The notes beneath the pieces were generated by a model, which was given only the letters and a program-made list of their open reading frames with translations, was not told the DNA's origin and searched no databases. Below, one piece after another: positions 14,674-27,292 of a stretch of 64,000 nucleotides of DNA. Position 1 is the stretch's first letter, and each line of letters begins with the position of its first letter. Source of the stretch: Rhizodiscina lignyota (lineage: Eukaryota); contig ML978129.1 in assembly GCA_010015805.1 (NCBI GenBank), positions 434,001 to 498,000 on the forward strand. The letters run 5' to 3'. Both the position numbers and the translations under genes were made by a program.

Positions 14674-16515
14674 ATGGACTCTTCTTTGAAGCTTGTTCTT
14701 CTCGGCCTCGTGGGCGTCGCGTCTGCCCAGAGCGCGTCCCTCAATTTTCCTACTCCAGCTGGCAGCTACTCGACGAAGAGCTTCAATTCTTCTGCGGCTA
14801 GCACCTATCTGCCAAACAAGGACTACTCGAATGAGCAACTTGCGTTGCTCTGGGACCAAGTTGGCCCGATTGTGACAGCGGCAGTCACAACAACTGTGGA
14901 ACCCACACCAGAGTCATCTGCATCATTTCCCAAGCCTGGTCCCATTCATCCACTCGTGCCAGCATACATTCCGGAAATTGCTGACGCGAAACTCCCCGAT
15001 GACTTCCTCTGGGGTGTAGCATCTGCAGGCAAGTGCTCATTGCATCTTGAATAGTGGAAACCGTGCTGACGATGACCAGCTTTCCAAGTTGAAGGTGCTG
15101 TGAACGCCGAAGGCAAGGGCCCATCCGTTTGGGACCTGATTCCGCATCGATGGACGAACTCGATCATGGATAACTCGACCGGAGATGTGACGAGCAACAA
15201 CTACTACTATTACAAGGTTGACAATGCCCGCCTGCAGACGCTCGGCATTAAAGCGTACAGTTTCAGCATTGGCTGGGCAAGAATTTTTCCGTTCGGCTCT
15301 GGACCAGTCAACCCACAAGGCGTGGCGCACTACGACGACCTCATCTCTGACTTGGTTGCACGAGGCATCAAGCCAGTGGTCACCCTGTTCCATTGGGACA
15401 CTCCTCTCGCCCTCTTCAACTCGTACGGTGCCTGGACGAGCGAGAATATTGTGGCAGACTACGTTAACTATGCCAAGTACGTTATTGAGCGCTACGACAA
15501 GTACGTTGATGTTTGGTACACCTTCAATGAGCCGCAATACTGCAACTGGCGATTCTCTGGCTATCCGTTTGGCACGATTCTCCCATCTTACAACGGCATT
15601 GGCACTGGTGGTGTCAAGGCTCGATTCTTGTGCGGCCACTACACTCTCTTGGCGCACGCCGAGGTCTACAACTGGTACCACAAGGTATTCAAGGGCAAGA
15701 AGCCCATGAGCATGAAAACCAGCGCCAACTGGATCATTGCAAATAGCTCAAGCGCTGCAGACAAGGCGGCAGTCGAACGTGTCAACGACTACAACATGGG
15801 GTGGTTCGGACAATGCTGGAGGGAAGACGGTGACTACCCAGCGTCGCTCAAGAATACTCTTGGTGACATCCTCCCCAAGTTCACTCAAGTGCAGAAGGAT
15901 AAGCTCAAGGGCTCTTGCGACTTTTACGCTATTGATGGGTATACTACCTACTACGCCTCCGCTCCTCCGAACGGCATTGCTGCTTGCTCGAGCAACCGAT
16001 CTGACCCCAACTTCCCCGACTGTGCGCCAACTACATCCGTTTCCCCTGATGGCTTCCCCATCGGCCCTAACTCTGACGCTGGAGCGACATGGTTGTACAG
16101 CACTCCCACCGGCATCCGCAAGTTCCTTAACTTTATCACCAAGGACTACTTCCCCGCCGTCAAGTCCATCGTCGTCTCCGAATTTGGTTTCGCCGAGCCT
16201 GCTGAGGCCAGCTTCAATACCCTCGAGCAGATCCTCTGGGATCTCAGGCGCTCTGATTACATCCAGAGCTTCCTCGACAACATCCTCGCAGCTAGGGTCG
16301 TCGATGGCGTCAACGTCACTGGCGCATTTGCTTGGGCCATCTATGACAACTTTGAGTGGAACAGCGGCCTCGGAACTAAGTTCGGCCTGCAGTATGTTAA
16401 CTTGACTGACTACACGAGACACCCCAAGGCTTCAATGTTCCAGTTCCTCAACTTCTTTAAGCAGCATGGCAATGGTGGAAAGGAAGGAACCATAGCCAAT
16501 GCCACATTCAGCTAG
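14674..16515 (+). CDS. Secreted glycoside hydrolase family 1 (beta-glucosidase-like), 2 exons
   Basis: Signal peptide MDSSLKLVLLGLVGVASA; FLWGVASA/AFQVEGA across intron 15029-15079; TLFHWD, acid/base TFNEP, nucleophile VSEFG, DNFEW. Confidence 0.95.
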
Positions 16516-17717
16516 GGGCACTAAGAAAGTTGCGGATCGATTGATTCCATTCTCAATGAAGGCTTTTACACATGCGCTTTTTTAAAATGCTCAGGAAAAA
16601 GTGCGCAGATGGTATTAGACTGATATTCAAACTTCCAACCTCCCTTCGGGCTTACCGTGATTCCCCCTTACTTCTTGTGTATATAGCTCAAGACATCTTT
16701 CAAGAAAATATTCCACGAGATCCTTCTGTATCATCTATTTATTCTCCGTCCCGCTTGCCCAGTGATGACTTGCCTCTTTGCCTACTACCTGTGCCGTAAG
16801 TGGATCTTAGAGCGCCATTCAGATTCGTACATCCGAGGGAATATTCTCGAACAATGCTGCGAGGCTAACTTGTCATAAATCTACGCTCGATTAACAAGCT
16901 TCTTTAGGGCTCTCCTCGGGGATTTTCATCCATGAGTAGTGGACCCCGTTGCCGTCGAGACGAGGAGGCTAGTCCCGCTTCCCGCCATCCCCCAGCCACT
17001 GACACCGACAACACACTAAATGCTCGCCCAAGATGACGAAACACATTTCCAACCTTTCCCTCTCATCTTCCCTCGTCTCACCCTACCTTCAATTCTGTCG
17101 TTCGCTTCCCTTCGTTCTTCTCCAGCGCCTGGCCGCGTGACAGCACGCTGCATCTGCCACGTTCGAAGCGCAACAACAACCAGAACAACCGAACCAACCA
17201 GCCGCGTCGCACTCTGCCAGGAACCCCCACCATCATCCCCGAAGGCCGGACGACGCGCAGCGTTAGGGCGACGAGCTTCGTGGCATCGCTGGATTGTTCG
17301 CCTGCTCCTGAACGTCGCACTGCACCTCGACCTTTTTGTTGGCGCGAATTCGTATCTCTCTGCTACCGGTTCGCATAAAAAGAACGGCCCACCAGTCGGG
17401 CCTCAAATTGCGCGCGCGCAAGCGGCATCACGCGTCGGGCTGGAGTTCTCTCCGCGGAAGAGACGGGTACAAATACCTCGAGAAGTCATAGAAGGCGCGA
17501 GTACAAAACTTTGACGCTGCAGTCGTGTCAATTGGGCCTGTTTCCAAGACCTGCGGTGTCTCTCGGATCCCATCTCGTCCCTCCGACTCCGTACTGAACG
17601 ATATCCCTCATATTGCGCACACCGCATAAGCCTCCTATACCTTCCACCCTCCTAAAACGACGACATTCCCAGACAATTTGGTTCTCGGCTCGAACAAGCT
17701 GAGCAAGACTCTGAAGA

Positions 17718-18422
17718 ATGGCGCGCTCGTATATCAGCAGTGCTGTCGTCATCAGCAACAAATATACCTGGCCGGACTTGCAACTGAACATATGGAACAT
17801 CATTGTGCTAGCGGGCGCGGGGTTGATATTGGGCGTCTTCGCGGCGTTTATGCAAGACCAGAATAGAATGGGGCTGGGAACGCCATGGTAAGTCTCTGAT
17901 TTCGGTCGCTCTATCGCTGGAGAGCATATTATCGCATTTTCGAAGCATGCAAGAAGAAAGCGCTAACGCCAATGCGAATTTACAGGCTCTTCCCTTACGG
18001 CATCACAGTTGGCGCCCTCACAATTGTCTTCATCATCATCGAGATTATCCTCATCATCCAGCGACGCCTCCTTCCCGGATTCATGCTCCTCTTCTCCTTC
18101 ATGTTCCTCGTCCTCTACCTCGCCGGACTCATCGAGACGTCAATACAGCTCTTTGGCGCTGGAAACGTGAGTGACAACTGCAACACATTCGTGCAGCATC
18201 GGCAACAGCATGGCGTGTCGCTATCGACGTTAGCGTGGCTGGAGCAGGACAGTATATGTGAGTATTCACTGCCTCCATTGGAAAATACCAAAGTCCATCG
18301 CTGACAGATGTTTGACAGGTTCGTCTTGGTATGCAGCGTTCAGCTTCTGGCTTATCCTGTGTGTCTTCTTCGTCTGGATGATGATCATGGCTGCCCAGGT
18401 CAGCAGAAACTCTTTCGAGTGA
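17718..18422 (+). CDS. Conserved fungal four-transmembrane protein (MARVEL-like), 3 exons
   Basis: Spliced MARSYISS...YTWPDLQLNIWNIIVLAGAGLILGVFAAFMQDQNRMGLGTPW / LFPYGITVGALT...LAWLEQDSIC / SSWYAAFSFWLILCVFFVWMMIMAAQVSRNSFE*; canonical introns. Confidence 0.8.
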
Positions 18423-18672
18423 ATGCTTGTGTCATCTCTACTGTATGTGGCGTTGTTGGGTCGTTGTTCCTGTCTTGGGTTTAAAGGTCTGGCAGCATTG
18501 ATGCATGGATGCATGGCATGCGGAGCTTAGTGGGTAGAATGCGGCGTTATTTAGACCTGGGGCTACTTTTCGGCTCAGTGGCTACGGCTAGCGGACAGAT
18601 TTTGGTTGAGATCAAACTATATCAAATTTCAAGAAGCCGGCATTATCCAACCTAAACAGAGCATCAACTTTG

Positions 18673-21600
18673 TCACACTCCGAGCGAGCCTATGTTAACG
18701 TCGTCGACGGCTCTGTTGGGTCGGAGGATGCAACCGTCCGGCGACTGAAGATTGTGGTGTTCCCAACTGGGCAGTTCTAAGTCATTAACACAAACATCCA
18801 TCTCTTGACTGCGATGCCTTCGTAGCATAATGCTTCTCCACTTTATTCGGGAGATGTTGTTAGGTATCTCGTGCCTCAGCCTCCGCATACTCGCCACGGC
18901 TCCCTTCCACCATAAGTACTGATGTCTTAGAGCAACGGAAAGTGCGATCTGCATAATAACAATCATAACGATGAGGGCAATGAGAAAGGATTTGAAATTC
19001 ATTTCGAAAGGTATGATACGCTGTGACATACTGAAATAGAGAGTACAGATCACAAAAGGGGCAATAACCTGGCTGATATTAGCTGCTGATCACTATGCTC
19101 CTGTTCAGTTTGGACGCACTGAAGTTATTAACTCTGCGACGAGTCCATTTTTCTGGGCCACTCGACTACCTTCAAGAATTAAGCGAAGTTGGAGCTGCGA
19201 GTGTCAGTCGAGTGATTTTCACGTGGTCGCGTTTTACTCACAACTCGCAAGAGTTCATGACAATGGTTCGTCTGAGGTAACAATCTCTGTTGGACGGATT
19301 CTAAACATCCGAGTGTCTTTTTGATATCATGTAGGTGCACCCGAGCCCTATCCTGGCCAGTCGAGGTTTCTTGGGAGGAACCAAGTTCGAAGAAGTAGCC
19401 CATATCTTCGCTGCTTGATAGAAGCCCTTGCCAAGCAGCTCTTGTTTCTGAAATTGTACCCTGCAGCAAATTCAGAAGTCGACTTATTGGCACGATCCGG
19501 TCGAAGGTCTTCTTGACGTTTTCGGTGACTGCCGATCCGTGGTCCCCTTCAGATGTACCGTATGCCATACTCTTAAAATTAAGCATTAGTTTTACGATCG
19601 TAATAGTTTCAAAATGAATGAAAGAGAGTAATGAACGATGAAATTCAGGACATACATCCAAATCTCGTCCGACTCTACACTCTACTTCGACCAGGATTTT
19701 CTCCCACTCATTGAGCAACCGTGCCGCGCGGTCTTTGAGAATCCAAAGGAAGTATTCCCTGGGATCCCAGGCCAACTGCAGTGCATCAAAGTTGATCTCA
19801 CGATACTCGTAGTTCTTCCCCGAGCATCTAGTGTCTCGTTCCGAGGTAGGGGGCCTATAAAAGCTGCAACTTCGTGGGATGTTGGGTTGGATATCCTCCG
19901 GGACTGGATACGACCGCATGAATTCAAAAACTCCCTTGGAATTGCTTAAAACAAGATGAAGGTATCGCTTCCTCTCCCATGCTTCGGGAGGAGGAATGCA
20001 TTTCTTGCCAAAGGTACCGAGGGAATCCCAACGGCGCTGTAGATCATATATATCGTTAAGCTGTCCAGCGGTATCGACTTCAAGGATTGGGTGAGTTTCC
20101 ACGTACTCCAGCCACGCGCAAATGGTTTGATTTTCGTTGTTCAGATGATTGCCATTATGACGATAGCAGTACTCCTCCACAGACTGTTCATTTGTCTTTA
20201 AATACTGAGACATTTGGTGGCCAGTGTAGTGCTCGCGTTGAGAAGGCCTGTAACTACGCATGCGGACGGACCTCCTTACTCTGGGGGGTTTATTCGAATC
20301 GTCATCGCTACCACTATCATCGCTCTCATCGTAGTGGTCCGAATCATCACGATCTCGCTTTTCGCGCTCGTTGTCGTTGTCCGCTGAGCTATCATGGTCC
20401 CGCCAACGTCGCATATCAAGCTCGTCATCAACAAAATGGCTAGCGATGTGATCAATCCTTTCTCCCCACGACGAAAAGACTGACCGACAAAATCCACAGT
20501 AACGGGGATATTGACTCCTCGGGATCTTGAAGTGGCCATTATTGATCCATTCTGTTGGGCTCAGACTTGGATGAATCTTTTCGAAGTGCTGTATGATGTG
20601 CTGACGACGATAAGCTGTATACTCGCACATTCGCAGCTCCATCTGGTCAAGAGAGTCAAACGACTTTCGATGTCTGGACTTCAGGTGTTCAGGAGTTGGG
20701 TTCTCCACTTGATGACCAGAAGGGCAGTAGGCACAGAATACGCTGTTCTTGACGCGGACAGTAGCTGGGACGGTACATATCCAGCCCTCCTGCGGATATC
20801 GAGTTTGCTCATGTCTCTTCCAGTCTTTCTTTTCTTTAAATCTCTTGCCACATTTACGGGTACACTGAAACGGTCTGTCGCAGTCCCGTGCTAGAAGGCT
20901 CAGGTCCTTGGTGGGGCGGCAATGCTTTCCAAGTTCTTTACCGCCCCTGCAAACCGCCTCTTTGGCTCTGACAAAAGCAGATTTCACACCTTCAGATTCA
21001 AACCAATCCCCAGGAGGCCTGGCTTTACACCTATTCAAGTCCTTGATGTCGTTATCATCTCGTGGGGCGGGGCCAGTTCCAGCAACACTTGCTGCCCCAG
21101 ATAGAGAGTGATTGTCCACGGAACCGCTGGCGAAGGAGGTTTGAGATGTGTTGAAAGCATAATTTATCCGGCTGCCCGAGTCACTGGTTGGAATTCCAGA
21201 ACTGGAATAATTCGAAAGAGTGTACGTTGAACTGGCAGAGCCCTGTCGTAACATCCTATTTCCAAACCAACTCTCAACGGCGTCCTTAGGCTGTCCCGAT
21301 AAGACACTCAAGGAGGCAATATCAGACTCCTTCGGAACTTTTGGTGAATTCAACTGCAACCAAAGCATGCAGTATTGTACGCCGGCCGGGCCAAGATTGT
21401 GAGTGTTTGCTGGCGCTGGAGCAGGCGCTGGAGCAGGCTTGAAACGCTTTGAATTGTCGCTGTGCTGGATGCTCCAGTGATCGGAAAACCCTCGCTCCGC
21501 TGTATCTGGATCGGGACCGTGATCCCTTTCAAGTGATATCAAAGAACGAGCTACCGGCTGAAGTGCCTGAAATGATCGTGTAGCATTGTTGTTTGCACCT

Positions 21601-21791
21601 GTATCAACCGAAATAGAGTCTCTGTCGAAGTTCAGACTATCGACGTCCATGTCCGCTAAAGCGTTGAAGTTCTCCATGAACTCGTTTCCGGTCGCATTAT
21701 TCCATATTGGATCCGTATCATCCATAGTCCCAGTGCCATCTTCAGTGAGCCAATGCGGTCCGGAAGGCTGAGAGCCCGACCCAGAATCCAT
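18673..21791 (-). CDS. Homeobox-like + C2H2 zinc-finger protein fused to a CorA-like helical/2-TM C-terminal module
   Basis: Homeodomain-like WLQLNSPKVPKESDIASLSVLSGQPKDAVESWFGNR. Fingers FQCTRKCGKRFKEKKDWKRHE, CAYC..H..H, CEY..HIIQHFEKIH, CGFC..WGERIDHIASHF. Then WDPREYFLWILKDR..EWEKIL and spliced exons LQLRLILEGSRVAQKNGLVAELITS / VIAPFVICTLYFSMSQRIIPFEMNFKSFLIALIVMIVIMQIALSVA. Confidence 0.75.
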
Positions 21792-22782
21792 TCTGATCAG
21801 CTTCGAGGGAAGGGTTTGTTTCGAGGTCCGATAAGCACGTAATTTCACCAAACTGACACATGCATCGCACAAAGATTTTCAACTCACGAAGATATCTGCA
21901 TCATCTGCTTGAGTGTAACACTCGATTGATGCCCCTCATGGTGACCAACTGGGCGCCGACAGGGCGCAAGCTGGGCGTTCTACCAGCTCATGTTCACATT
22001 GGGTGGAGCGAGCGCCTTGCAGTTGGAATACAACGCATAGCTGCAAAATCAGGGCATGCTGTATGCTCACGGGACAGACACAAGAGGTGCCCGAACTCGA
22101 ATCAATGCTTGCGGGCGACAAGTGAGGCGCTTGGTGAGGAAGTGCGCCCAACGCCGGAACAGTCACCTCCGCGATGTACGAATCGTCGGGCAGCGACGAA
22201 ATTGAATATTGATGAGGATGTTACGTAGACATTTACAGGCCCACATGATAGTTTCAGGAGCTTTTCAACTTGTTAGGCTTGTTCAATTAAAGAGCAGTAG
22301 ATATATGGGCACAAAGTGACCTCACATAAAGTCCATTTCCGTTTTCAGGCGTGTGTTGCGCAACCGTGTAGCGTGAGCTCTAAGGAAGCAGCTTAAGCCG
22401 GCTCTACAATTGGTAATGCAACCACTCTTCCAGCAAGGTTATTTATTTGTTGCTCATAATTAATTTATTCAAAGCCGCTTACCAGCCGTGCGCGTTGGTC
22501 ACGAACATTCACGATATGCTCCACGATGTTCATCATTTTCACCTGACAGTGGGCTCGATTCGACGATGACAGCGCATGGTAACGGGTATAAAATTCAAGA
22601 CATTGATCCGCAGCAACAAACCAACCCCGCTTACGACAATTAAGCTCCCCAAGGAGTAAGCAAATCTATGTCTTGAGTCGGTAGTGAATTTCAGAATCGG
22701 CGCAGCAGATCATTGTGTATCAGCTTTTTCAGGATTATGCTCCGTGAAAATATGTCGTTGTCTATCATGTTTAAACAGGGGT

Positions 22783-24855
22783 CTATGACAATTCGATACA
22801 ACGCCTGTGGCATAATGCGCCAAATGCAGATGTAAATTGGACATAGCCTACTCGTGTGCACTTCAGATGCTTAGAAGTCGCTTCTTGTACACTCAGTGCT
22901 AGCCCAAGGCCAGCAGTGCCGTTCTTCTCCCACAAGCCCATGTCCGCCGTTTGCAGGAGCGCACAGCACAGCATCATGTCGTCTTTCGCTTCCAGCGCGA
23001 TATCGAAGACAATTAAGCCAAGTGCTTCCCCAGTGAGCGGGTCAACACAATTTCGCCTGCCATACGTATGAGCACCCTGTCTGGTATTGAACAGGAATGG
23101 TTGAACAGATGCTGTGCGAGTTATGGCAACGTATGCCGATATCTCGATACTCCCGCCTTTGACAGCGCCAGTGTCGAAGAATGATACCGATTGGACCTCA
23201 GCATGACGGAGCTCCGGATCCATAGCTGAGGGATCCAGCTGTGGTTTTCTCCAATGCCTTGCATTCGCCTCATAGAAGAGCACGGGTGCATCAATACTGG
23301 CCCAAGACCAAGTGGGCGCCACATACTCCTCGTACCTACGGCCAGGTCGTTGCCGGATCTGGTTCTCGTCGCGACACCAAAGCAAACTGGCCCAGGGATC
23401 GGATTTGAGAAAGCCGGCGAGGTATGCTGAGCCCGCCTTATCACATGCAATACCATGAAAAGCGAGAAGCCTGTCTTTGGGATAAGTTAGGCTCTTATTC
23501 GAGTATCGCTCAATCAAGCGATACCACAGCGTATACCATCGGTAGGGAGGATGTTTGCTGAGTTGTTCGAGCCCCTGTGCTCGAGTGGCAGGGTTACTGC
23601 CGTCGCCTACGCATTGCCATAACACGGATTTCTGCGTCACCTTCACTAACCTGCTCGAGAGTAAGTCTTCCTGGTAGCACCAGCCTCGGCTGTCAGTGGG
23701 CGGTGGTGGTGGCGCGTTGCGAGGTTGTCCATTCGGCAGTAGATAGATTGTAAATTTTGAAGACCCATCTTGCAAGAAGAGACTAGCTGCACTGTTTCGC
23801 AGTGGGTTTCGCCGATCTGACATGCCGCCATAGACCGAGCTGGATGCAGCCACGAGCGTCATAGTAGCACTTCCATAGATGGAGGCCATTCTGGAAGCCT
23901 CACGCTGCCAGTCTTCCTTTGAGTCCTGCAGAATGCACATGCTGTCGATCCAGATGTAGCGCTCTCCGAGCTTGCGGGTCCATATGATAGCATCATGCAG
24001 CGTCTGTGGAAGATTAGAAAGCGGTATTTCTGTGCTGAATTGCTGCATAGTCATCATAGTCAATTGCCATGGTGCGTCCTTGGGCGTCATTCCCCAGCAA
24101 TAACTCAGGACAAGATGGCCACCGTTGAAAAGACATTCCTGCCCGTCCACAAGCTTTGGCGGGTCCTTGGAATCTTCAGAGCCGACATAGACGAGCCGAG
24201 TTGGTGCTACTACCGGCCCATGATTCCCATGCACAATGTTGACCGTCGTGTCTTGCTGCGAAGCCGTGCCCGAAAGCGGAAAGATAACCCGATTGCAAGT
24301 TTTGTGGTTGGCCAAACAATTCGTCAATGACTGCTTGATATATGTAAATGTTCCGTCGTCTTCCGCATATAAGCTGACAAGGCCTTATAAAGTCAATTAG
24401 CACACTGAATTCTAACCTTAGTATCACATCTTACCCTTGAAAGCCCGCGCACCTTGAGGAACGTCCCTAACATCGCGCACATATTTAAAGTCGGCTATTG
24501 GCACGAATTGAAAGCTTAGCTGTTGGCCATCAGAGCGCTTCCATAAGGACTCATCCCAGGTGCCACGATTGGGCAGGGAAGCCAGATCAACCGTAAGGGC
24601 TACGGCTTGAGTACCATCACTATTGACGGTTGCACGTTCGAGATGGACTGGCTCGTCGTCTAGGCGGTGCTTGAATGGCTCCCGGACAGCTTCATATAAC
24701 AACGTGCAGGTATGACAGCCTCTTGAAGCAGAACCTGCGAATGCAGAGAAGGTCAGCCAGAGCTGGTGTGGCTTGTTAATTACTCCATTTTGAAAGAATG
24801 CAAGTGGAATTGCCTGACACGTCGTGCACGTCGGCCAAGGTGTCCTGAGAGTCAT
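22783..24855 (-). CDS. Heterokaryon incompatibility (HET, PF06985) domain protein, TOL-like subtype, 2 exons
   Basis: N-terminal CxxC...GCHTCTLL; PTRLV, LSYCWG, LPQTLHDAI, YIWIDSMCILQD, MASIYGSA, RGWCYQE, DRLLAFHGIA, APTWSWAS. An intron at ~24383-24434 restores the frame. Confidence 0.93.
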
Positions 24856-25348
24856 ATCCAAGCATAGTCAGCGTTGCATGGAGCTTCGTAGCGTGCCCGC
24901 TGCCTCAAAATGATTTGAGCTTAAGTGACTATGATCGAGCTTAAGTTGACCGTGGAGCGAGTTGAGGTAGGTAGTACAAGCTTGAGCCGAAGTTGAGCCG
25001 GATTCTCTCTGCAAACCCCTGACTAGCGTCAGGGGCGTCCCGCCGAATAAAGTCTCCGGCTCGATACATACTGTAAAGAAAGAACGTAGCGATGCCCAGA
25101 CCGATCGGGGACCAGCCACGCGTAATCCTGGAGCAGGGAAGAGAGACGTTTCAGCTCTATTCATCACTAAAATTTCTTCTCTTTTCTTTATTTGTATCAT
25201 ACACTGTCGTAAGACAGTGGCATCGTTTAGCAATAGTCTCCGTCTACCGTCCGGCGTATCCACTCTTCCAATGCACAGATAGCACGCACCGCGGACAGAC
25301 GCGAAGCAGAACCTGCACTGCGTAGAGTAATTACGTCTCGACACCAAG

Positions 25349-27292
25349 ATGGGCGGCAAGATCGAGTACACAGATCCCGGCCTCATCGGGATATTCCTTT
25401 ATCAACTTGGGTCATGCGCTCTCTTTGCACTTATCCCCATAGCATGGATTCTGGTTCCGATCTTCAATTTCAGCTCCGCTCTTTATCTCAGGCGGAACTT
25501 GAAAGAAGCCGCACAAACGACAGCATTCGTCATGAGCCTTAGTGTGATCGTTCCGTTGTATATTACCGGGAAGAACATCATTTTCCTTCTGAACAGGATC
25601 ATATCGCCGTTCCAAGCACTTTGGAGGCCTGTCCCATCCCAACGAAGAGGGACCGACCCCGACTCCGATATTCCACTGAGGCACGATGAACCATACCAAT
25701 ACGAATCCCTAGCGGGAGAAACTGCAATAAGACTTCTTCGTATCTTCCCTGGATCTCGCTTTGAAGATCAGCTAGTGGTAGAGCTAGTAACAGCCGATCT
25801 TAGTTATCCACCGAGTTACGATGCTCTGTCGTACACATGGGGCGACGACACCGGCAACATTGATCGATCCGAGAAGCTCCCATGCAAGAATGGTGGCATA
25901 ATTTGTATCACAAAGAACTGCGAGGCTGCAATCAGACGTCTGCGACTACCCAGGAAGAACCGACTGGTATGGATTGACGCCGTGTGTATTGATCAAATCA
26001 GCAATATTGAGCGCACACACCAAGTCTCGTTAATGTCAAAAATCTACAAATCAGCACAGAAGATCATTGTCTATACGGGCGAAGGGACGTCTGAGACAGC
26101 CGAACTGTTCGATTGGCTTAACAGCATTGACGAAAACGAGTTGGACATCTCGGCGCCGTGGACTCTGGAGGACTTGAACTCGACCGAACTACAGAATTTG
26201 GACGAACCTGCTCGGAGGCAAGTACAGCGCAGACGCGCCGAGTTTTGGTTCAACGACGTTATGTGGAGAATTCGAAGGGTTTGGCGAACATCGATGATCT
26301 CAACAGACCGCATCCATCTGTCTGACCCGCAAGTGCAACACCTTGTCAGAGAGTACTGCTCTCGACGGTGGTTCAGGCGAGTCTGGGTCTTACAAGAAGT
26401 TGCGCTGCCACCTATCAACCGGATTCAAGTCATGTGCGGCACCAACGTCACGACTGCCGAACGAGCGCTGCATGCCATTTCTCAACTGCAAGGCGACGAG
26501 CTTTCATACAACATACTTCATATATTTCTCTTATTTCGCAGACGGCTAAAGAATCCGAAAAGATCTCATCATCTGGATATTCTCATCGCCACACGCGGAC
26601 GTGAGGCCAGTGATGCCCGTGATAAGATATTCGCTGTCTTGAGCATCGCGCAACAGATGGATGAGTCGAGTTTTCCCAAGCTAAAGGCAGACTACGAGAA
26701 GTCAACGCAAGAAGTATATGCCGAATTCTCCTCCTTCTTCATTGAGCATCACGGCCCAGCGTATTTCCTCTCTCTGATCAAGTCGCCATCGCAGCTAGAA
26801 GATTTACCATCATGGTCGGCGCATTGGACCGTACCGTGGCCGAATTGCAAAGCTGTCAAGGAAGGGGGCTTTGCCGCAGGCTCAAGGCCTCCGGATATCG
26901 CAGACTCCAGCGCTGTTTTTGAGGTTGTGGATGATGTGGACGACGCAAAATGTCTACTGCTCGTTCGACCGAAGATCCTTCGAGGCTACTTTACCTGGAA
27001 CGGGCACATTGACGACTCGCGGGAGACTGACATTCGACAAGTGGAAGCTGTAGCCGATGACGAGGTCCTTGTTGAGATGCGCCCAGGGATTGCTGCGCTC
27101 TTGAAGAGGAAAAAGGATGATTATGTCTTTGTACGAATATGCCCTCATGCACTTTCGGAGGACGGTGTTCATGAATTAGTGGAAAGATGGAGTACCGTTC
27201 TGACAAACGGGGAAGGGGAAAAAAGTGCCCCAAGGAGAGTGGACAGCCTGCACGACTATCTTGACCCACCGCAGACCTTTAGAGTTCGGTGA
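25349..27292 (+). CDS. HET-domain protein, HET-6-like subtype, with two N-terminal hydrophobic segments
   Basis: IRLLRI, YDALSYTWG, ITKNCEAAIRRLR, LVWIDAVCIDQ, MSKIYKSA, WFRRVWVLQE, ASDARDKIFAVL, LPSW; the first ~85 aa are hydrophobic. Confidence 0.93.
   Translation: MGGKIEYTDPGLIGIFLYQLGSCALFALIPIAWILVPIFNFSSALYLRRNLKEAAQTTAFVMSLSVIVPLYITGKNIIFLLNRIISPFQALWRPVPSQRRGTDPDSDIPLRHDEPYQYESLAGETAIRLLRIFPGSRFEDQLVVELVTADLSYPPSYDALSYTWGDDTGNIDRSEKLPCKNGGIICITKNCEAAIRRLRLPRKNRLVWIDAVCIDQISNIERTHQVSLMSKIYKSAQKIIVYTGEGTSETAELFDWLNSIDENELDISAPWTLEDLNSTELQNLDEPARRQVQRRRAEFWFNDVMWRIRRVWRTSMISTDRIHLSDPQVQHLVREYCSRRWFRRVWVLQEVALPPINRIQVMCGTNVTTAERALHAISQLQGDELSYNILHIFLLFRRRLKNPKRSHHLDILIATRGREASDARDKIFAVLSIAQQMDESSFPKLKADYEKSTQEVYAEFSSFFIEHHGPAYFLSLIKSPSQLEDLPSWSAHWTVPWPNCKAVKEGGFAAGSRPPDIADSSAVFEVVDDVDDAKCLLLVRPKILRGYFTWNGHIDDSRETDIRQVEAVADDEVLVEMRPGIAALLKRKKDDYVFVRICPHALSEDGVHELVERWSTVLTNGEGEKSAPRRVDSLHDYLDPPQTFRVR

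Follow-up and report, generated by a model that had tools for sequence, protein, structure and literature searches.

Gene and Coding Frame

The DNA analyzed here is a window of 64,000 nucleotides from Rhizodiscina lignyota (Dothideomycetes; GenBank assembly GCA_010015805.1, contig ML978129.1, positions 434,001 to 498,000), with a GC content of ~0.50 across its length, and the subject of the analysis is a gene on its minus strand at 18673..21791 (all coordinates refer to the window). The gene at this position is real. Its coding region extends from an ATG at 21791 (start codon 21789..21791) to a stop at 18673, and these ends match exactly those given by an earlier sequence-only reading, which described a homeobox/C2H2 DNA-binding protein fused to a CorA-like membrane module. 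A word-indexed search found a single near-identical match among public proteins, NA57DRAFT_58385 of R. lignyota, which has 878 residues and is annotated solely as "C2H2-type domain-containing"; in the phmmer comparison it is 100% identical to the query across residues 1–712, and the start codon is the same in both. The public model differs from the gene of the sequence-only reading in two respects, the removal of an 84-nucleotide intron and the use of another 3' acceptor.

The earlier description of one uninterrupted frame is borne out in so far as the stop-to-stop frame on the minus strand at 21878..19179 is open for 899 codons, the first ATG being that at 21791, but this frame encloses a probable intron at 19655..19572 that is itself in frame and stop-free (84 nucleotides, GTATGT..CTAAT..AAG). 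The segment is absent from the public coding sequence and has a GC content of 0.29 compared with 0.49 in the exon. Although a naive translation of the open frame reads straight through it, the segment is probably a real intron, and consequently 28 residues of the supposedly uninterrupted frame are probably not present in the protein.

Two Competing 3' Ends

The two gene models share a donor at 19241 and part there. In the sequence-only reading two further exons follow the long open frame (counted as exon 1), and both are indeed joined to it in frame by introns whose donor, branch-site, and acceptor signals are canonical. The first intron is a phase 0 intron of 47 nucleotides at 19195..19241 (GTGAGT..CTGAC..CAG), the donor of which is common to the public model. 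It is followed by exon 2, with 25 codons at 19120..19194 (..LILEGSRVAQKNGLVAELITS), which would contain the end of a stalk helix and the start of the first transmembrane helix (TM1) and which is skipped by the public model. A second phase 0 intron of 51 nucleotides at 19069..19119 (GTGCGT..CTAAT..CAG) leads to exon 3, with 131 codons at 19068..18676, which starts VIAPFVICTLYFSMS.. and ends at the stop codon at 18675..18673. The 47-nucleotide intron had been placed at ~19194-19240; the intron exists, but these coordinates are one base off, the correct ones being 19241..19195. Its retention would end translation at 19179, as had been stated, at a TAA at 19181..19179. In the public model the exon end at 19242 is joined to 19030, an acceptor with a good pyrimidine tract 211 nucleotides downstream of the shared donor, and the resulting last exon (18863..19030) is read in another frame, encodes 55 residues, and competes with exon 3 for the same DNA.

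The spliced product of exons 1, 2, and 3 contains two hydrophobic segments, which reach 2.04 and 2.91 as 19-residue averages on the Kyte-Doolittle scale and have their peaks 37 residues apart. The remainder of TM1 and a degenerate CorA signature (P..x8..YFSMS for P..x8..YGMN) are encoded at 19024..19068, as seen from the sequence and from profile alignment, and the second transmembrane helix (TM2; FLIALIVMIVIMQIALSVAL), with the mean of 2.91, is encoded at 18928..18987. A basic C-terminal tail of 84 residues, rich in R/K/H directly after TM2, occupies 18673..18927 together with the stop codon, and the in-frame codon score stays positive over it. A comparable hydrophobic pair is found in only 1 of the 161 open reading frames (ORFs) of at least 100 residues in the window, that of a MARVEL-like membrane gene. 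The two transmembrane (TM) helices of the earlier description are thus a strong hydrophobic pair in the spliced product, but they exist only under that 3' splicing and are absent from the public model, the last exon of which has no hydrophobic segment on the Kyte-Doolittle scale and encodes no TM helix.

The two ends are separated by codon statistics, for which 19 other long ORFs of the window served as the training set. In leave-one-out windows of 131 codons, true in-frame windows scored 0.165 ± 0.086 bits per codon (n = 55) and off-frame windows −0.323 ± 0.189 bits per codon (n = 110). Exon 3, at 0.107 bits per codon, lies at the 31st percentile of the in-frame windows and is exceeded by 1 of the 110 off-frame windows, and its frame gains a further 6.3 bits beyond the stop of the public model. 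The public last exon, which uses overlapping DNA, scores 0.004 bits per codon, at about the 2nd percentile of the in-frame windows. Beyond 18673 the DNA scores −0.38 to −0.50 bits per codon in all three frames, which is the noncoding level. By these statistics the public model probably reads its last exon in the wrong frame, and we lean, with some confidence, toward the 3' structure with exons 2 and 3 as a real isoform; both 3' forms may coexist. Among public sequencing runs no RNA run with this stretch turned up; the sole run that contains it is of near-identical DNA, on one contig with no joints, and is possibly the window's own source.

These data bear directly on a simpler account, in which the public model is the sole product of the gene, so that a soluble homeobox/C2H2 protein of 878 residues would be made and the TM frame would be untranslated, being either open by chance or what is left of a decayed exon. 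The deposited annotation joins 19242 to 19030, the pyrimidine tract of the 19030 acceptor is good, and no relative of the protein ends in a TM hairpin of this kind, all of which agree with such an account. It would, however, have to accommodate a public last exon with a codon score near zero, an overlapping frame that is coding-like and open for 138 codons, the fall of the score to the noncoding level past the stop of exactly that frame, and a hairpin whose score in the CorA register lies beyond every shuffle (35-sequence C-terminal profile, hhalign) and every control, as described below. We consider this account unlikely, though it must be taken seriously.

Homeodomain and C2H2 Fingers in the N-terminal Half

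The N-terminal half of the protein, here termed the head, has many relatives. A phmmer search against 1.84 billion cluster representatives gave 1113 matches at E ≤ 0.001; 338 of these pass E ≤ 1e-10 and 39 pass E ≤ 1e-30. The best 149 of the 1113 were examined further. Among the best 150 of the 1113 matches the best-matching stretches, leaving the self-match aside, fall within query residues ~90–560 and mostly within 130–520. Residues ~134–500 belong to a large Pezizomycotina family, confirmed as homology, in which a degenerate TALE homeodomain is followed by a four-finger C2H2-type module.

The homeodomain lies at 21231..21392 (residues ~134–187) and was recognized by alignment, an AlphaFold2 (AF2) model, Foldseek, and VIA-align. 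The homeodomain-like stretch ..AVESWFGNR reported earlier is present, is homologous to the Homeobox_KN domain of the relatives, and adopts a three-helix fold in the AF2 model. In an alignment of 106 sequences, from which the AF2 model was also built, 13 of 14 relatives checked have their Homeobox_KN (PF05920) stretch at query residues 144–182, and Pfam matches to Homeobox_KN or Homeodomain, scoring up to 64 bits, are found in 27 of the 150 relatives. The query itself gives no Pfam homeobox match even at E ≤ 10, the PF05920 gathering cut-off not being reached. Helix 3 of the query reads WFGNRMLR, compared with WF-N-RRR in the relatives; in homeodomain numbering, the query keeps W48, F49, N51, and R55 and has M at position 53 in place of R53.

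The finger module at 20385..21017 (residues ~259–469) forms the conserved core of the family, as seen in the phmmer matches, the C/H columns, and the AF2 model. The sequence-only reading counted about four C2H2-type fingers; four finger-like units are present, of which the second and fourth follow the canonical C-x2-C-x12-H-x3/4-H pattern when read by eye, but fingers 1 and 3 are degenerate, each lacking one ligand. The nearly invariant Cys/His columns of the family are all kept in the query, and the query matches Pfam zf-C2H2 (PF00096) with an E value of 0.015 and 16.2 bits, which is under the 25.2-bit cut-off.

The AF2 model of the head has a mean pLDDT of 78.5, with values of ~95 over the homeodomain and 90–98 over the finger module, which is folded as one compact unit (model residues 140–350). 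The top rows of a Foldseek search with this model are all homeodomains, at E values of 0.16–0.94, none being ≤0.001, with target-normalized TM-scores of up to 0.79. The best match in VIA-align is the homeodomain of Meis2, a TALE protein, with a root mean square deviation of 1.8 Å over 54 of 55 residues and a Z of 7.7 that, taken alone, is in the common range of the tool. Structure prediction together with structure searches returns a homeodomain fold within the N-terminal half. No PDB row covers the finger module in the Foldseek and VIA-align searches of the head, in which homeodomain matches filled the rows; no finger-only search was made.

Linker and Orphan Helical Region

The head is followed by a linker and a helix-rich region, and both the acidic linker and the helical WDPREYFL.. 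stretch described earlier are present in the translated sequence. The linker, at 20214..20384 (residues ~470–526), is of low complexity and is first acidic and then basic. It scores 0.161 bits per codon and contains 0 stops, compared with 3 and 11 stops in the other two frames. From 21791 as far as the donor at 19241 no stop interrupts the frame, which is coding-like through the linker, and it is well supported that one coding sequence spans both halves of the protein. The helix-rich region is encoded in two parts, the first at 19656..20213, which includes WDPREYFLWILKDR..EWEKIL, and the second at 19242..19571, which on sequence reading extends up to ..HELLRV at the donor.

The C-terminal half is an orphan. 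Searches for homologues were negative among proteins of 467–1488 residues and of 168–536 residues, metagenome contigs gave 234 pattern matches of which none was confirmed, no paralogue is present within the window, and a comparison with the C-terminal parts of 14 relatives gave no match. No homologue spanning both halves was found: the relatives match the head, and the tail has no detectable homologue. Exon 3 gave 0 matches to PDB sequences at E ≤ 10, and in the ESM Atlas the exon 3 ORF retrieved only unnamed clusters of bacterial membrane fragments. An AF2 single-sequence model of the soluble C-terminal part has a pLDDT of 44, contains helices only, and is too poor for a fold search. The one similarity found concerns a helix of 40 residues with the pattern W-PREYFL.I.K.R....L.EWE, in which query residues 671–710 match residues 821–860 of the relative P0029 with an E value of 9e-7 in a database of 150 sequences (relatives are designated by P numbers). 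P0029 is a C2H2-kinase-HET protein, and the matching helix resembles an insert at the start of its HET domain. The helix was also considered as a general feature of the HET-bearing relatives and was rejected as such, being present in 1 of 22.

The unequal evolutionary reach of the two halves, with 1113 relatives for the head and none for the tail, together with an in-frame Met after the linker, is what would be expected if two adjacent genes had been joined or misjoined into a chimera, the C-terminal gene starting near MSQYLKTNEQ, as the sequence-only reading had raised with this Met as a second start. The stop-free linker with its positive codon score and both other frames closed speaks against such a junction, the public model also holds the two halves in one coding sequence, and no stand-alone homologue of the tail was found among the proteins of 168–536 residues. 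The idea of a two-gene chimera is accordingly disfavored and appears very unlikely.

The Predicted TM Hairpin and CorA

Profiles were built from bacterial CorA genes in sets of 5 and of 35 sequences, in C-terminal and longer versions, and the spliced hairpin was compared with segment-preserving shuffles, in which each TM, loop, and tail segment was kept in place. In HMMER the 35-sequence C-terminal profile gives 8.7 bits, a score reached by 0 of 2000 shuffles (maximum 8.6). The 5-sequence C-terminal profile also gives 8.7 bits, in an alignment that is gapless over TM1, the GMN motif, the loop, and TM2 and whose score is reached by 13 of 2000 shuffles, and the 5-sequence full-length profile gives 3.8 bits, reached by 23 of 2000. 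With hhalign the 35-sequence profile aligns over 231 collinear columns with a probability of 46%, a P value of 2.1e-4, and a score of 36.3, which none of 120 segment-preserving shuffles reached (16.9 ± 3.9); for the 5-sequence profile the probability is 5.6% and the P value 0.0068. Among 312 real-sequence controls, comprised of 151 proteins and 161 ORFs of the window, the spliced C terminus ranks first with 10.0 bits, and the best unrelated sequence scores 2.2 bits. The exon 3 ORF alone scores 7.2 bits, so that the spliced form is 2.8 bits higher, its alignment reaching back through exon 2.

Residues matched in the gapless alignment are the conserved TM1 Pro, the Met within GMN, and the loop-motif Pro. 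The degenerate signature noted earlier (P..YFSMS for P..F..GMN) is aligned in the expected register, with SMS at the GMN site. As in CorA/Mrs2/Alr1/ZntB (PF01544) and in the fungal CorA-like family PF26616, two TM helices come at the C terminus behind a region rich in helices, the Pro of TM1 is followed eight residues on by aromatic-x-Met, the short loop contains a Pro, and a basic tail follows TM2. Unlike the members of the CorA superfamily, the query has SMS for GMN, gives no Pfam match, shows no detectable CorA similarity in its soluble domain, and carries a DNA-binding head. The best-scoring named neighbors of the soluble part in the ESM Atlas, at 0.85 each, are one cluster of PF26616 ("CorA-like") and one of PF01544, which can be taken as a lead only; PF26616 gave no Pfam match to the query pieces, although the presence of a PF26616 model in the library is unconfirmed.

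Several observations weigh against the view of this gene as encoding a DNA-binding protein with a CorA-like membrane hairpin. The public gene model takes the other acceptor and frame, which contain no TM segment, and because the C-terminal half has no homologue, conservation provides no check on it. At the aligned site GMN is replaced by SMS, and exon 1, the exon 3 ORF, and sub-pieces gave no match to Pfam CorA (PF01544) at E ≤ 10. The soluble region alone scores 14.3 against CorA in hhalign, compared with 14.7 ± 2.5 for shuffles (n = 150), and its reversed sequence behaves alike, whereas the 320-column HMMER profile of CorA gives −1.8 bits, a value reached by 599 of 2000 shuffles. The shuffle null destroys the generic order of TM helices, and this may flatter the CorA match. 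Because helix 3 lacks R53 and two of the fingers are degenerate, DNA binding by the head, although plausible, is not assured.

The "CorA-like membrane module" of the sequence-only reading can thus be kept for the hairpin only, which matches the CorA profile in register, because the soluble helical region scores no better than shuffles and Pfam CorA is not matched; CorA-likeness in sequence register is in this sense supported for the hairpin and not for the module as a whole. Judged by its sequence, the protein fails on two defining features of CorA family membership. The gapless alignment through TM1, loop, and TM2, including the TM1 Pro, the Met of GMN, and the loop Pro, might still suggest that the protein works as a divalent-cation channel of the CorA type, with its DNA-binding-like N terminus in a regulatory role. 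The G and N of GMN, however, are both replaced, and both are required for Mg2+ transport by CorA; neither a Pfam CorA match nor a CorA signal in the soluble domain supports a channel, and we regard a channel function as exceedingly unlikely.

Relatives and Gene Neighborhood

Fungal homeobox proteins with C2H2 fingers are known, the architecture being illustrated in Kim et al. (2009, PMC2779367). Three TALE-homeobox and C2H2 relatives in the present set, P0090, P0106, and P0117, resemble the query in having a homeodomain followed by the same finger module, corresponding to query residues ~130–500. The query differs from these homeobox and C2H2 relatives in that its homeodomain is below Pfam detection and its C-terminal half is unrelated and ends in a TM hairpin.

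Pfam scans were made of 150 relatives (the 149 from phmmer and P0005 from the word-indexed search), at E ≤ 0.01 for 22 and at E ≤ 1e-5 for 128. A protein kinase domain is present C-terminal to the head in 43 of the 150 cluster representatives (among P0018–P0147), and 22 of these 43 also carry a HET domain. A homeobox is combined with a kinase in 2 of the 150, and ankyrin repeats, DUF7896, and a lectin-like stretch occur as single cases. The fusion in R. lignyota is unusual, as had been supposed, in that Pfam matches to CorA or to CorA-like families occur in 0 of the 150 relatives. In the kinase and HET relatives P0056, P0062, and P0101 the finger module is homologous to that of the query, with E values down to ~1e-39, but their C-terminal output is a kinase plus HET rather than a helical region with a TM hairpin. 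The closest relatives, P0006–P0012, have neither a kinase nor a HET domain. These architectures identify the head as a promiscuous module, with the gene described here as one more lineage-specific tail swap. A full-text search of the literature returned no description of the head-kinase-HET architecture. One further relative, P0142 (1339 residues), combines PALP and peptidase M20 domains with a homeobox/C2H2 head and is probably a merged gene model.

Two HET-domain genes adjoin the upstream side of the gene, at 22786-24384 on the minus strand and at 25331-27289 on the plus strand, with Pfam HET E values of 2.8e-29 and 2.3e-27, respectively. The nearer one (24384..22786) is on the same strand as the fusion gene, and the HET neighborhood may be due to chance. 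On the other side, a small multi-TM gene at 17900-18304 on the plus strand, which is probably part of a spliced gene at ~17715-18526, has a weak MARVEL match (E 2.3e-4) that is below the cut-off; this MARVEL-like gene converges on the 3' end of the fusion gene, and the two stops are ~150 nucleotides apart. A further gene, at 15076-16512 on the plus strand, is an ordinary member of glycoside hydrolase family 1 (Pfam E 2.1e-100).

The kinase and HET architectures invite a reading in which the head would primarily be a recognition or regulatory module instead of part of a transcription factor, common to a modular fungal family with varying outputs (a kinase, a kinase plus the HET death domain, or ankyrin), and in which the CorA-derived hairpin would be the output here, acting at or on a membrane in nonself or cell-death-type signaling. 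A Pkinase domain in 43 of the 150 relatives, HET in 22 of those, the 2 combinations of homeobox and Pkinase, the two adjoining HET-domain genes, and the recurrence of the 40-residue helix of the orphan region in one C2H2-kinase-HET relative are all consistent with this proposal. The HET neighbors may, however, reflect chance, as HET genes are numerous in such fungi; P0006–P0012, the closest relatives, have no kinase or HET, and the common helix is found in a single one of the 22 HET members. Such a role appears improbable.

Proposed Architecture and Implications

Our preferred reading, in which we place about as much belief as doubt, is that the gene is comprised of four exons with about 978 codons and encodes a lineage-specific fusion protein. 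From the N to the C terminus this protein would consist of a nuclear-type homeobox/C2H2 head, a disordered acidic/basic linker, the orphan helix-rich region, and a C-terminal TM1-loop-TM2 hairpin. The hairpin would resemble the pore end of CorA-type channels through descent or through convergence, its GMN selectivity motif having been lost (SMS). Owing to this loss, it would act as a membrane anchor, perhaps an oligomerizing one, and not as a Mg2+ pore, and the head would thereby be held at the membrane. From the basic tail after TM2, both termini are predicted to lie on the cytosolic or nucleoplasmic side. Activity could be controlled by cleavage in the disordered linker or by a TM-less isoform, produced either by retention of the 47-nucleotide intron, with its stop at 19179, or by use of the public acceptor at 19030. 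Release of the head from the membrane is pure inference, and a location in the inner nuclear membrane, where no release would be needed, would be equally possible. A lineage-specific fusion giving a membrane-anchored, transcription-factor-like protein is plausible, the anchor being conditional on the predicted 3' splicing.

Membrane-tethered transcription factors include SREBP/Sre1, which has a hairpin of two TM helices, Mga2/Spt23, the plant NTL NAC proteins, and ATF6. As in these proteins, a DNA-binding domain and a TM anchor would be present in one chain, separated by a long disordered linker and, given the predicted splicing, with the DNA-binding part predicted to be cytosolic. Domain and anchor share one chain under the splicing with exons 2 and 3 and do not under the public model. 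The class of the DNA-binding domain and the origin of the anchor differ from those of SREBP/Sre1, Mga2/Spt23, the NTL proteins, and ATF6. No example of a membrane-tethered fungal homeobox factor was found in the literature searched by full text, in which "CorA-like" was not joined with "Pezizomycotina" and, together with "HET domain", gave nothing that looked related.

A wider proposal can be drawn from the same features, for which the prospect is slimmer still than for the recognition role discussed above. The members of a modular Pezizomycotina family would have the head in common as their recognition module and differ in interchangeable outputs, among them kinase plus HET in the relatives and the CorA-derived hairpin here. 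Alternative 3' splicing would toggle between a form held at the membrane, with acceptors 19194 and 19068 in use, and a soluble one, made with the acceptor at 19030 or by intron retention, linking a transcription-factor-like sensor to membrane or cell-death-type signaling. Such an architecture, if true, would be undescribed for fungi.

The fusion is an orphan of a single species, and its 3' end rests on predicted splicing. For annotation, the lesson is that the final exon of a public model can be, and here probably is, out of frame. The fusions of the head with a kinase, or with a kinase and HET, deserve a study of their own. If the spliced form is made, a homeobox/C2H2 protein would carry a channel-derived anchor, in which the pore end of CorA would have been reused after loss of GMN, and this would represent a novel design for a membrane-tethered transcription factor.

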